A stretch of 63,896 nucleotides of DNA, filler included, from Neolecta irregularis DAH-3 (Eukaryota): the NCBI GenBank assembly GCA_001929475.1. It is 14 parts of 14 records of this genome, joined end to end, with 100 filler letters (N's around TTAATTAATTAA, not from the genome) between each part and the next. Parts side by side here need not be neighbours in the genome. Positions count along the whole stretch, not along the records: positions 22,751 to 30,439 come from LXFE01001141.1; positions 30,540 to 35,034 come from LXFE01001148.1; positions 35,135 to 41,004 come from LXFE01001150.1; positions 41,105 to 53,422 come from LXFE01001151.1; positions 53,523 to 54,561 come from LXFE01001153.1; positions 54,662 to 56,878 come from LXFE01001154.1; positions 56,979 to 59,175 come from LXFE01001157.1; 7 more parts are not named here. The stretch is one strand, 5' to 3'. The notes under the pieces are model-generated. The model ran no database searches, had not been told where the DNA came from, and was given only the letters and a program-made list of their open reading frames with translations. The stretch's first letter is position 1; each line of letters starts with the position of its first letter. A program made the translations under genes and the position numbers. Of the stretch, positions 23,176 to 59,149 are shown piece by piece.

Positions 23176-24238
23176 ATGCTTCCAAATCTCTACCTTGTAT
23201 TGTCATGTCTGACTGCAATAGTCAGAGCTGCGGATAGGTATCACAGAATCGGTCTAACAGAACAAGATTTTCACAACGTGGGCGCGAGACGATCTGGATA
23301 TTTTTACTTTCCACAGGCTGATCTTTCCCTAGAAGAAGCCGCCGCCGACTGCCTCCTCCAATGTGCCAGTTCTGATCCATGCCGGGCCACTGTCACATTC
23401 GACTGCCAGCCACGTTATTTTTCGTCAGTTGACGGAGACGCTCACTTTGACTCCCAGCCATGTTGTTTTATGTCAGATCAGAGATTTTGGGAGTTTAAAC
23501 AAGATGATATTGCCCTCGATATACTTGAAAAGGATAGGGTTAGATCGACACTGGCATATGACGATGATGAGGAGTATAATTGTGCCGCTCCTCTGCCATT
23601 TTCCGGTTTTCACAAATATTATAACCACGTGGATCTAGAAGAAACTCATCTTATAAAGATCTCAACAAGCATTGCCGATGGGATATACTATGCTTACAAG
23701 TAACCTTTTGTTGTGTCTCAATGTGCCTAACTATACAAGTATCGTCCTTCCTTTGTTCCCTCAAAACTACAACTTGGAACTATCGAACGGTCGTAACATA
23801 ATTCGTGATATTAGTCGCTTTGAATCACTAGAAAAATGGAAAGTCGAATTTCATTCCCTCAAGCCGAGAAATGCATTGATGCTATTGCGCGATGAGATAA
23901 TATCTACATTTCTTACTCCCCGGAAACATGCTGTGGAATCCCTCATGAACAACAATATTAGCAAATCTCGGGCAGTCATGATGATCCAACGCATTCTTAA
24001 CAAGCGGCCACTTGGTAATTTAATGTTGCCAGCCGTCAAACAGTATTTGAAATTCCGATGGTCAACGCCAAATGGATCTAATCTGGTTAATGGGCTTCTT
24101 TTTGCTGAGATTTTCCTCCATACAAGTCTGGTTATGCCTGATGACACGCTTGACATAGAGATTTTCGACGATGTTCGACTTTACCTAGCCTACGATTTGA
24201 TGCAATATTTTGGCTTGACTGCAAACGACATTGATTAG
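23176..24238 (+). CDS. Secreted protein, PAN/apple-like header plus cargo type 2; 340 aa; intron 23700-23739
   Basis: Signal peptide MLPNLYLVLSCLTAIVRA; EEAAADCLLQCASSDPC..F..CCF; GTAACC..CTAAC..AAG phase-2 intron joins the two ORFs in frame. Confidence 0.75.
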
Positions 24239-25078
24239 CCGGACCTAGAGACAAGATTTCCCAGAGAGGATGACTCGACAACGGAATAGAAGGCAAGTTA
24301 AATAGAGATAAATCAAATGCAAGAGTATAAGTCTGGGCGGATAGCCAAAATAAAATAGATAAAGTGTACAATATTCTCAATGATCCATTCTTTATAATTT
24401 ACAGCTTCTTCTGTTGACATTTCCACCTGTTGGAGCGAAGACACATTTCAGTCCGAGCAAGAGACGGTTGTAGAATTTGGTGCATGGGTCGATTTGTCGA
24501 AGAGTTTGGTGTCATCGAGCAGGTAGCCACTCGTTTTGCAGAGATGAACCATGGCTACGGTTGCTGGGGGTACGAGGCTCCCCGAGGCTTGATTTCGATC
24601 TTGGGTCGAAGCAATGGTCCTTGCCAGAGAATGCGCACTTGACCGCGTCATTTCAGGCGGTGCGCCGTCGATCCAGGGCGAGGGCGGAAGTAGTAGAACC
24701 GCCAGGTCTTGGGCTGCGATGCACAGGAGGCGGTAGCAGATACGCCTGATTGGGGGCCGCTAGGTCCTCAGCTACGACGGACGTTGGATATCAATATTCT
24801 CGGATGTTGGCCCGTGGTGTTGGGCCAAGTTGGAACGATCCATGGTTTTCCATTGGAACTTGCACTTTCATGACCATGTTTCTCTGACCCCTAACGTCTG
24901 CATTGGAAAGCTGTACAGTCTTGACAAACCCGTCTGGTTGAACTAGTACGGTATCAGCAGAAATATTACACCCGCTAATTGTGCTTGACAATGACCGCTA
25001 AATTCCCAGACCATGAATCGACACGCGAGGTACGGATGGACGCTGCGCCCATTCTTCCCAGCGCCGCCCTCAAATACA

Positions 25079-26127
25079 AGTACGCAATTATTCGCCCAGA
25101 CTATTGCTGATTTCATCAGTGAGTGTTGTCAATGTCCTTCAAGTCAAGGTATTAAACAATCCCGCTCCGTTCAGCGCGCCATATGAATTCGAAATTACAT
25201 TTGAATGTCTCGAGAAGCTGCAGCACGGTATCTCGGCTTGTTTTTGCTTCCACCACTTACACCTATAGATCTTGAATGGAAGCTCACCTATGTCGGCAGT
25301 GCGGCTTCGACACTGCATGATCAGGTTCTCGATTCGCTTCTAGTAGGCCCAATACCCATCGGAGTCAATAAATTCGTGTTCTCTGCCGACCCACCTGCGA
25401 CTAGCAAGATTCCACTGGCTGACGTTCTTGGTGTTACAGTCATCCTCCTGACCTGTACATATGATGAACGCGAATTCGTTCGAATTGGTTACTACGTAAA
25501 TAACGAATACGAAAGCGAGGAATTACGGGAAAACCCTCCGGAGAAACCCATCCTAGAAAAGATGCAACGGAACATTCTTGCCGAGAAGCCCAGAGTAACC
25601 AGAGTCAACATCAAGTGGTACGAATGCATTGTTGGGTGCATGACTGACTTTAGGGACAATGTCGCTGAGACCGACGAATTCCCGCCTGAGCAACCTTTTG
25701 CCGATGAAATGGAAGATGACGAGGAGAAATATGGTGCTGAAGAGAAGGTTGAAGAAGATCCTCACGATGTTGACCGAGAAGACGTTGCGGATAAGATGGA
25801 AACCGACGAACCAGGTATAGGTGCCACTGTAACTACTCATTAACGCCGACAGTTGCCTCTGTTAGCGTCACTACTGCTCTAGTTGAAGGTAAACCGCAAA
25901 CATTCTTGGTTTATACTGATATCCTAGAGCCCGTGAGTGATAATGCTGAAGAAGACCTTGAAGGTGAATCTTCAGAGGAAGACCTTGAAGCAGATGAAGA
26001 ATTGGATGGAGAAGAAGAAGTTGACAGAGACGACAACATGAAGGAAAATATCCCAGAAACCAACACAAATGAAAAGGGGAAGGCCGTCGAGACCGAAAAC
26101 CAGGCTACTGGCACGATTATTGCTTGA
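25079..26127 (+). CDS. ASF1: Histone chaperone Asf1; ATG split by intron 25080-25119; acidic tail over several exons
   Basis: (M)[84 protein letters not shown]. Confidence 0.97.
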
Positions 26128-26212
26128 GACAAACTTTTTATCTTATTTTGTACCAAAAGTATGAAAGATAGCATGATAACCACGTTACTATACTATATAG
26201 ATACTACGACTC

Positions 26213-56860: not shown

Positions 56861-57567
56861 ATCTAAGCTTGTAGGCGTNNNNNNNNNNNNNNNNNNNNNN
56901 NNNNNNNNNNNNNNNNNNNNNNTTAATTAATTAANNNNNNNNNNNNNNNNNNNNNNNNNNNNNNNNNNNNNNNNNNNNTAATCTTTGAAATGTCGAGTAC
57001 TTTTTGTCGTCGACTCCCATCTTCCCATTGTCTTTGATCTTCGCTCAGTGTTGTCACTTCCCAATCCGTGTTTAATACTTGTGTAACCATAGCAGTTACA
57101 GCAGTACTGAGCTCTGGTAAGTGGCCAGTCAAGGAATCGATCTACATGAGGCAGACAGAGGATGCAGAGTGGAGCAGCGTGTGAGGAGTCAGGGCAGCAC
57201 TGGTAGTCTCACCACCTAATTGATCCACAGACCATCTAGATATCATGTGAATAGCCTCAAGTATTTGTCTTTGCACCAAGTCAAGTTGAGATGGCAACAT
57301 TTCACTAATATCCAATACAACCGAATCACTCAATTATCATATTCAAAAACATCCAATATCCAGAAACACCTAGACCCCCCCAGAACCTTCAGATCCCTCA
57401 ACTCATTCCGATCCCTCCCCCCAAAGAAGCTCTGGGAAATCAGTGTCCAAGCTGCCTCTCTCGGTCTCAGCTTATTTCAATTACTACAATAGAGCTCAGC
57501 CGTTACGCTCTCTGACCCGTCACCTTATCTCAGTATTGTCTTTCCTTGTTTCTCACCCACCTAGACC

Positions 57568-57748
57568 TGTAGGGCCGCCTTGCCAGCACTGGCTATAAAA
57601 AGAGGCCCGTTTCCTCTCTTTTTCAATAGCCAATCGCATTACTCTCTTCTGTAGTCAGGTTTAAGATCCGGAAGCCCAATACCACTGCACTCACCAACAA
57701 ACAACCACAAAACCCCCATAAACCTTGAGCTGCAACCTGCGTGTGACA
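57568..57748 (+). mobile_element. Possible short LTR
   Basis: TGTAG..CTATAAAA..GTGACA next to degenerate retro-like sequence. Confidence 0.35.
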
Positions 57749-57940
57749 ACAGAACCTACAGAGGCTGAAACTGAAGTGAATCAAAAATAGCCATTTGGCT
57801 TGCAGCAGCAGGACTGTCTCAGATGGTGAAGCCTATATCAAAAAATTGAAACAGTAAGAGAAACATAAAACCATGGGATAAAGATTCCCGATATAAACTA
57901 AACACCCTACCTGGGTCACCCAAATTTCAACATATCCAAC

Positions 57941-59149
57941 ATGATGCTCAAGGTCCTCTGTTTGGTCACACTTTGTACTATTAGTGCGGCAAAATATCTC
58001 GAGAATTTCACAGAGATTTCAACCCGAGTCACTATAAACCAGCAGAAATCAGAAAATTTCTATATAAAGAATATGGATATGGACCAAGCAAAAGAAGAAT
58101 GCGCGCGACAATGCCTGTTGATCCCATACTTTTGCCACTCTTTTATCGTTCATGACCAATTTCCGAAAGAATGTCAAATGTTTACCACATCTGAGGCAAA
58201 CTGGATCTCTAATCTTTCTGATTCCGACATTGAAGTGAAGTTATACTTGTAAGCGCTCGCAAGTAATGATAGATTTCTGACAACTAGGACACTTCAGCCA
58301 GAACAAGTTCAAGACATTGCTGCAAGGTTGTCCCATAATGATGAAAAGCAGGAAGATTGGGCTAGTGACATTCAAACTAAATATGGAATATGGCAAAAAT
58401 ATCCTGATCAAAGACAGTTACATCAACAAGTTCTAAGGATCTGCAACATTGCCATACATGGCGAACCACCAATGTCGGTACACATTGAACGACAACTTAT
58501 GGACCTAACCCTAAATTCATGGGCACAGCATTCGACCAACTCAGACACCTTATTGAAAGGGTTTGACACTATTGTATTCACTTTTCTCGAAATATTCAGC
58601 AAGAATGCTGAACAAGATGTCTCCACTTTTTACGATCCAACCAAGAAGACGCTTTCCATTCAAAGTAAAGACCTCTATCTGTTTATCGTTTCATGCTGTC
58701 CTGGACATTATGAAATATTCCGGCACACTAAATCTCTAAAAGATCTCATGCAATTGACGATAGCAGCAGACAACCTTCAAATCGACGATGGACAGAATGA
58801 TGCTTTGGAGCTATTTAAAAACGCAGTGGCTCGTGATGGCATATTTGCTACCATCCCTTATCCTCCAAAAATGGTTAAAGTTTTCCCCAGGACAGATGAT
58901 GAGCAATCGATTGCAGCAGCAGCATTGATCACGGTGGCTGAGGCACTTTTTCGACCTCAATCTCTCTCAAGATGGATTTCGAGTACCCGGGAGACAATAA
59001 TGTATCGCGATATCGTAACAGCAGTGCTCTCTAGCGTATATGAAAAGATTCGAGCCCGTCCGTTTCACACCAGTTTGTTCAAAAAGGCCAAAACTGGCGC
59101 TTTAACTGACATAACCATAAACAATGGTCAGACGCAGCTATTTTTGTAA
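57941..59149 (+). CDS. Secreted protein, PAN/apple-like header plus cargo type 1; 389 aa; intron 58249-58287
   Basis: Signal peptide MMLKVLCLVTLCTISAA; YLENF; EECARQCLLIPYFCHSF..CQMF; GTAAGC..CTGAC..TAG phase-2 intron. Confidence 0.85.

Follow-up and report, generated by a model that had tools for sequence, protein, structure and literature searches.

The window analysed here is a stretch of 63,896 bases from the genome of Neolecta irregularis DAH-3, made of 14 contigs of 1.0-12.3 kb that are joined by linkers of the form N44-TTAATTAATTAA-N44, and it carries three genes, g1, g2 and g3, each on a separate contig and each interrupted by a single short intron. Two of these genes, g2 and g3, are probably paralogs within a small secreted-protein family that appears to be restricted to Neolecta and that has the hypothetical protein NEOLI_003911 as its third member, and g1 is a separate orphan; this is the reading that we favour, with moderate confidence. 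In g2 and g3, a putative signal peptide would be followed by a PAN/apple-like four-Cys module encoded by exon 1 (the header) and, beyond the short intron, by an orphan domain of ~290 aa encoded by exon 2 (the cargo). A previous sequence-only reading of the same window had proposed that all three genes form one expanded effector family, in which a PAN/apple-like header exon is spliced to interchangeable cargo exons; its observations are partly confirmed and its interpretation is partly supported. Neolecta is an early-diverging lineage of the Ascomycota whose ecology is poorly known and possibly root-associated, and to our knowledge it is the only lineage of the Taphrinomycotina with complex multicellular fruiting bodies.

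All three genes yield ATG-to-stop models that require exactly one GT..AG intron each. g1 (23176-24238, plus strand; 340 aa) consists of exon 1 (23176-23699) and exon 2 (23740-24238) with a predicted intron of 40 nt between them (23700-23739; GTAACC..CTAAC..ACAAG). g2 lies on the minus strand (42677-44017; 434 aa) and comprises exon 1 (43623-44017), a predicted intron of 36 nt (43587-43622, read from 43622 to 43587; GTAGAA..TCTAG) and exon 2 (42677-43586), and g3 (57941-59149, plus strand; 389 aa) comprises exon 1 (57941-58248), a predicted intron of 39 nt (58249-58287; GTAAGC..CTGAC..CTAG) and exon 2 (58288-59149). Each of these introns is in phase 2 and follows a Tyr codon plus two bases (AY/N in g1, LY/G in g2 and LY/L in g3, the slash marking the intron). 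The recomputed models thus agree with the sequence-only reading as to three genes on three contigs, each with one phase-2 intron of 36-40 nt after a Tyr. When all GT..AG pairs of 25-150 nt that preserve an open frame are enumerated, g1 has 6, g2 has 18 and g3 has 19 such solutions, and the proposed intron is in each gene the sole one with a length of 36-41 nt.

This size fits the norm of the genome, as the three reference introns are 39-41 nt long. Two of them, 42130-42170 (41 nt) and 41885-41923 (39 nt), both GT..AG on the minus strand, are absent from one contig (record 9) of a sequencing run, X2, which we regard as cDNA-like because this contig lacks the two stretches. The third, in the gene for ASF1 (25228-25268; 41 nt, phase 1, GTATCT..CTTAC..TAG), is supported by homology, since its removal restores the conserved junction FECLE..DLEWKL. 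The predicted introns also contain CTAAC/CTGAC-like branch motifs, as do the verified introns of the genome. In addition, the codon log-likelihood ratio, computed against nine conserved training ORFs from the window (0.156-0.259 bits per codon), is positive for 6/6 exons when they are read in the frame of the models (0.119-0.186 bits per codon), much as in the training ORFs, and turns negative in both other frames; its values are +0.174 and +0.163 for the two exons of g1, +0.186 and +0.119 for those of g2, and +0.167 for g3 exon 1. All three proteins begin with a signal-peptide-like N-terminus, as had been claimed, with a best 10-residue Kyte-Doolittle mean of 2.65-2.79 within the first 30 residues, and the same hydropathy heuristic detects no later transmembrane-like segment in any of them. 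From these sequence features we infer that the g2 and g3 proteins are exported.

The headers of g2 and g3 are homologous to each other (BLASTP of the exon-1 products, 3e-7). In particular, the g2 header carries its four cysteines at residues 62, 66, 73 and 87 and the g3 header at residues 54, 58, 65 and 78, so that both share the spacing C-x3-C-x6-C. The Cys core of PAN/apple domains, which consists of C-x3-C followed by two further cysteines and forms two disulfides, is present in both. PAN_1 (PF00024) is the top Pfam match of the g2 header (17.7 bits, E 3.2e-3, residues 58-92) as well as of the g3 header (20.5 bits, E 4.4e-4, residues 32-94), and it remains the best match when the full g2 and g3 ORFs are searched. 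PDB sequence searches give nothing under E 0.19; the N-domain of HGF (3hmr) is among the weak matches (E 0.74). PAN/apple domains, which have a hairpin-loop fold with an antiparallel sheet packed on a helix, bind carbohydrate or protein ligands elsewhere; examples are the oomycete protein CBEL and the N domains found in HGF and in plasminogen. The likeness of g2 and g3 to this family lies in the top Pfam match and the C-x3-C..C..C core, whereas they differ from it in scores below the family threshold and in an attached C-terminal domain that is not known from PAN proteins.

The cargo of g2 is a domain of ~300 aa that matches no recognised family, and g3 exon 2 encodes a divergent copy of it. 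Pairwise comparison of the two exon-2 products gives E 3e-4 over 78 aa (BLASTP), which is weak by itself, and the relation is carried by a third sequence. With g2 exon 2 as the query, phmmer finds two matches at E <=0.001 among 1.84 billion representative proteins. One is OLL24625.1 (373 aa; E 7.5e-30, 43% identity), the hypothetical protein NEOLI_003911 of N. irregularis DAH-3 itself; the other (E 5.9e-4) was disregarded, being a 29-residue stretch in a 5778-aa repeat protein. By BLASTP, g2 exon 2 aligns with OLL24625.1 at 3e-42, from exon-2 residue 1, which corresponds to residue 68 of OLL24625.1, on to the C-terminus; over the phmmer and BLASTP alignments the identity is 37-43%. g3 is more distantly similar to OLL24625.1 (E 1e-3). 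A profile hidden Markov model (HMM) built from g2 exon 2 and OLL24625.1 scores g3 exon 2 at 15.2 bits, a value reached by 0/1000 shuffles (maximum 5.3). The three cargos align co-linearly over the C-terminal ~285 aa and keep the blocks SW, FD..FL, VS..GHY and T.VLS..Y, so that g2, g3 and NEOLI_003911 all belong to one cargo family. The earlier claim that two of the genes share exon 2 is thereby borne out.

Pfam and PDB sequence searches find no match for the cargo of g2 and g3, in line with the earlier statement that the cargo domains are not recognisable, and the same holds for g1 exon 2. A match to a characterised family, which would have spoken against a novel family, did not emerge, as the sole true relative of the cargo is the hypothetical protein NEOLI_003911. 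Word-index protein searches, made with each of the exon-2 products of g2 and g3 and with an alignment of the three cargos, also return no relatives, and these blanks are weak because the alignment search missed NEOLI_003911, which is itself in the query. One lead was tried and rejected: the top Atlas cluster for g3 exon 2 contains Ascomycota hypothetical proteins, with BTB on 39% of its members (score 0.95, 161 shared features), and a BTB assignment was discarded because no Pfam BTB match appears at E <=10 in g2 exon 2, g3 exon 2 or NEOLI_003911. A further PAN-like motif, with which the g2 cargo opens (43100-43130, residues 156-175; C-x4-C-x3-C-x9-C-x2-F-x-W), was likewise rejected, as it has no profile support; its cysteines are missing in g3 and NEOLI_003911.

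We take the g2/g3 family to be lineage-restricted because NEOLI_003911 is the sole true relative among 1.84 billion proteins and because two metagenome scans, one with the cargo alignment (514 pattern matches) and one with the header alignment (582), confirmed 0 relatives. The earlier claim of a lineage-specific secreted family accordingly stands for g2 and g3 and falls for g1 as a member. NEOLI_003911 shares with g2, and more distantly with g3, the C-terminal domain and a signal-peptide-like start of its own, and the protein has no Pfam family. It differs from them in its N-terminus of 71 residues, which is acidic, contains no Cys, is unlike g2 exon 1 and gives no PAN signal. The PAN-like module would thus be optional, since NEOLI_003911 bears the shared cargo without it. 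In g2 and g3, the phase-2 intron after Tyr was presumably inherited from a common ancestor, and its shared phase and position are no evidence of exon shuffling because common descent explains them. By analogy with PAN domains elsewhere, the PAN-like module may act as a disulfide-stabilised binder of an extracellular carbohydrate or protein ligand, and in doing so it could present or anchor the novel C-terminal domain.

Several observations weigh against this reading of g2 and g3 as an ordinary secreted pair and of g1 as a stranger to it. Neither header reaches the PAN_1 gathering score of 21.4 bits, although both are near misses; the PAN/apple claim of the sequence-only reading is therefore retained for g2 and g3 as a sub-threshold top match. 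The cargo gives no help from structure, as an AlphaFold2 (AF2) model from the three-row alignment reaches a pLDDT of 42.6, too poor for fold searching. In addition, two sequencing runs, X1 and X2, were compared with the window on 41105-50779, that is, on the g2 contig only, and there X2 record 11 (43545-44389) runs without a gap across g2 with the intron retained, while among the X2 joints listed none removes the g2 intron. Such a pattern would be expected if the gene models were wrong, with each exon 1 being a small secreted protein that ends just inside the supposed intron and with the downstream ORFs being independent or decayed and never spliced to it. Indeed, left unspliced, every exon 1 meets a stop in 1-2 codons, and the g1 exon-2 ORF has an ATG of its own at 23678. 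We nevertheless judge faulty gene models to be very unlikely. Record 11 may represent DNA or pre-mRNA, because it extends for 372 nt beyond the ATG on the upstream side. In the g2 exon 2 ORF the first ATG is at 43546, and none lies in frame between it and the preceding stop at 43603; an upstream exon is required because the part conserved with NEOLI_003911 begins before that first ATG. Moreover, all exon-2 ORFs have the codon usage of coding sequence, and the predicted introns match the verified ones in size and branch motifs.

The boundary of homology also speaks against plain divergence of g2, g3 and NEOLI_003911. As the alignment of g2 with NEOLI_003911 starts exactly at the start of exon 2 and the N-termini are unrelated (best E 1.6; 572/1000 shuffles equal the score on the header HMM), exon-bounded exchange of the header is favoured over plain divergence at this point. 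In an alternative built on this, modularity is confined to these three proteins, the first exon having been swapped, gained or lost as a unit at the phase-2 intron while the cargo stayed constant. Contigs of both runs (records 3, 9 and 11) that break or diverge within g2 and have identical flanks point the same way. Within g2, g3 and NEOLI_003911 the cargo is indeed constant and the header varying, with the homology boundary at the intron, as far as the sequences tell. However, this boundary is equally compatible with exchange or loss of the first exon, with internal deletion of the PAN core and with a mis-annotated start. The alternative is based on a single protein with a differing N-terminus, NEOLI_003911, whose annotated start could be wrong, and the same picture would arise if the PAN core had been deleted or if a short linker had diverged fast. 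We therefore regard a swapped, gained or lost first exon as unlikely, and retain the simple descent of g2 and g3 as the better account.

The run contigs further suggest that more paralogs or divergent alleles exist beyond the window, and these could carry other architectures, which likewise tells against a settled picture of the family. X1 and X2 each contain contigs that diverge from g2 exon 2 by 5-15% (41 differences/284 nt in X2 record 10, for instance), and their 3' flank is identical; they therefore represent closer paralogs or divergent alleles outside the window. Breaks in the contigs of the two runs fall near 43545 and 42810. In X1, the depth over 42720-43365 and 42074-42396 is ~10-15x that of neighbouring single-copy sequence, and numerous contigs share 85-95% identity with g2 exon 2; the summed depth over g2 exon 2, ~10-15x that of the flanks, is not readable as copy number. 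A bolder proposal can be built on these data, namely a multi-copy, fast-diverging Neolecta-specific family in which the first exon, with its signal peptide and PAN-like binding module, would be exchanged as a cassette and would meet the ~290-aa domain at a phase-2 intron that is conserved, with highly divergent copies or alleles lying in otherwise identical flanks. We think this proposal quite doubtful; if it were true, a cassette combined with divergent copies is the pattern expected of a partner-recognition or a self/non-self recognition system.

An X2 contig at 41411-42814 (minus strand) runs from the 3' end of g2 past its stop codon and lacks the two short introns at 42130-42170 and 41885-41923. 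The spliced stretch downstream holds no ORF of more than 61 codons, and it may correspond to a spliced RNA that does not code for protein, to the gene of a small protein or to a long 3' untranslated region (UTR) with introns. Another X2 contig, record 12, is shorter than the genome by 83 and 118 nt in two stretches.

The place of g1 is the remaining point at which the two readings part. g1 exon 1 encodes a signal-peptide-like start and a Cys-rich region, C-x3-C-x5-C..C..CC, with cysteines at residues 59, 63, 69, 77, 96 and 97, which is compatible with the PAN core, and exon 2 encodes an orphan region of 165 aa. Several features seem to tie it to g2 and g3 and count against its separation: g1 has the same intron phase, the same preceding Tyr and the same EE..C-x3-C motif. 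When the window is translated in six frames, the pattern EE.{0,4}C.{3}C.{4,6}C has three occurrences, 3/3 in g1, g2 and g3, compared with a mean of 0.02 and a maximum of 1 in 50 block shuffles; this figure overstates the significance because the pattern was derived post hoc from the same three genes. Of the Cys pattern proposed earlier, EE..C-x3-C is found in all three genes, and the next spacing is x5 in g1 and x6 in g2 and g3 rather than x4/5. Moreover, the g1 header scores 2.5 bits against the g2/g3 header HMM, with 46/1000 shuffles equal or better (p ~0.046), so that a distant kinship of the headers may exist.

These features, together with remnants of transposable elements (TEs) near g1 and g2, favour the view of the sequence-only reading that g1, g2 and g3 are one expanded effector family, with a PAN header exon spliced to unrelated cargos by exon shuffling in the manner of Crinklers. 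The weight of the comparison falls on the other side. The g1 header has no PAN match in Pfam at E <=10, no BLASTP similarity to the g2 header and an hhalign probability of 0.66% against the g2/g3 headers, so that its description as a more divergent version of the same header is not upheld; an AF2 model of it from the single sequence has a pLDDT of 32.3, too poor for fold searching. That the third gene has an unrelated exon 2 is confirmed: against the g2/g3 cargo, g1 exon 2 gives no BLASTP alignment, an hhalign probability of 0.12% and -1.8 bits on the cargo HMM (166/1000 shuffles as good), and it has no Pfam, PDB or Atlas relative (best Atlas score 0.89, recognition 1779, no lead). The intron, although in phase 2 after Tyr in every gene, lies 77 residues past the last motif Cys in g1 compared with 44 in g2 and 24 in g3, and hence is not at an equivalent domain boundary in g1. 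Given the common descent of g2 and g3, the agreement of g1 in phase is a 1 in 3 chance. Both truly homologous headers bear the same cargo, which leaves the idea of one header with interchangeable cargos unsupported, and tblastn of the six exon products against the window finds no additional copy. Taken together, a single shuffled effector family of g1, g2 and g3 appears improbable to us. From the comparisons at hand, g1 is better seen as a separate secreted Cys-containing orphan gene without detectable kinship to g2 and g3, whose likeness to them would be generic, consisting of a signal peptide, C-x3-C and one short intron of genome-normal size.

Header motifs of Crinkler (CRN) effectors are LxLFLAK and HVLVxxP, and inspection finds neither in the g1, g2 and g3 proteins. 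With Crinklers and polymorphic toxins, the likeness is limited to secretion and to the idea of an N-terminal module combined with a different C-terminal domain. The difference is that, in the window and the one public protein examined, no set of unrelated cargos stands behind one homologous header; compared with Crinklers, the variable part here, if any, is the header in g2, g3 and NEOLI_003911. A closer parallel by lineage is offered by the candidate effector superfamilies I and II of Taphrina, also Taphrinomycotina, which excerpts of PMC7036362 describe as secreted, lineage-specific proteins of "modular structure", Cys- and Tyr-containing, repeat-associated and fast-evolving. As far as these descriptions allow a comparison, the likeness may lie in the occurrence of secreted lineage-specific families in a sister lineage, whereas the Taphrina proteins are, in the same excerpts, small and carry seven short motifs unique to Taphrina, compared with 340-434 aa for g1, g2 and g3. 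A literature search found no publication that deals with the secretome or with a PAN family of Neolecta; in the main text of the N. irregularis genome paper (PMC5309816), as far as it was available, the words intron, secreted, transposable, contigs and RNA-seq were not found, and its supplements may hold gene lists.

TE debris had been reported beside all three genes, which is correct for g1 and g2 and not for g3, whose 2.2-kb contig contains no detectable TE-like sequence. A dispersed repeat fragment (22751-22953) ends 220 nt upstream of g1 and has other copies at 46364-46568 and 63130-63298; specifically, 22890-22953 equals 46364-46427 at 95% identity and 22788-22859 equals 63298-63235 at 76%. 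Retrotransposon debris upstream of g2 (45731-46568, plus strand) comprises a chromodomain ORF (45731-46153; Pfam Chromo, 4.8e-14) followed by the same repeat as beside g1, the two lying 1.7-2.5 kb upstream of g2. The summed contig depth in X1 is 17410-28128 over 45950-46595, compared with ~460 alongside. Beyond its nearby repeat, g1 is surrounded by housekeeping genes (ASF1 and a prenyltransferase). Conserved fungal ORFs elsewhere in the window include those for ARS-binding protein 2, a carnitine acyltransferase, a 2-hydroxyacid dehydrogenase and a PHD/bromodomain protein, and further conserved genes encode a nucleoside hydrolase and a protein kinase. An Rfam scan of the window gives 0 matches.

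On exact look-up in a public protein collection, 1 of 10 window ORFs is present (7684-8472), compared with 0/4 partial g1, g2 and g3 ORFs, and the exhaustive protein search with g2 exon 2 finds no near-identical public protein; the three genes thus seem to be absent from the public annotation of their source genome. Three side features of the window are recorded here. A gap of 10 N is flanked by two copies of a 119-base stretch, 50661-50779 and 50791-50909, at 99% identity; this duplication probably arose in assembly or scaffolding. The small contig 59276-60424 has a G+C content of 28%, compared with 42-54% in the rest of the window, and carries a Lys/Asn-rich ORF of 267 codons (59673-60476); this contig may be mitochondrial. 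Finally, a 319-codon ORF at 54614-55573 (minus strand) reaches the contig end and has a long, Ser/Thr/Ala-rich N-terminal half; its product resembles surface proteins of the cell-wall or mucin type.

We conclude that g2 and g3 form a genuine but unremarkable pair of lineage-specific secreted genes and that g1 is an orphan unrelated to them. The g2/g3 family opens no long-standing question, and a Crinkler-like system of headers and cargos assembled by exon shuffling is unsupported. If the reading of g2 and g3 as paralogs of NEOLI_003911 holds, two unannotated members would be added to an orphan Neolecta family, with g1 as a separate secreted orphan beside it. Because it joins a PAN/apple-like module to a domain for which 1.84 billion representative proteins offer no relative outside Neolecta, this family would be a candidate for extracellular functions peculiar to the lineage, and its structure would be worth determining.

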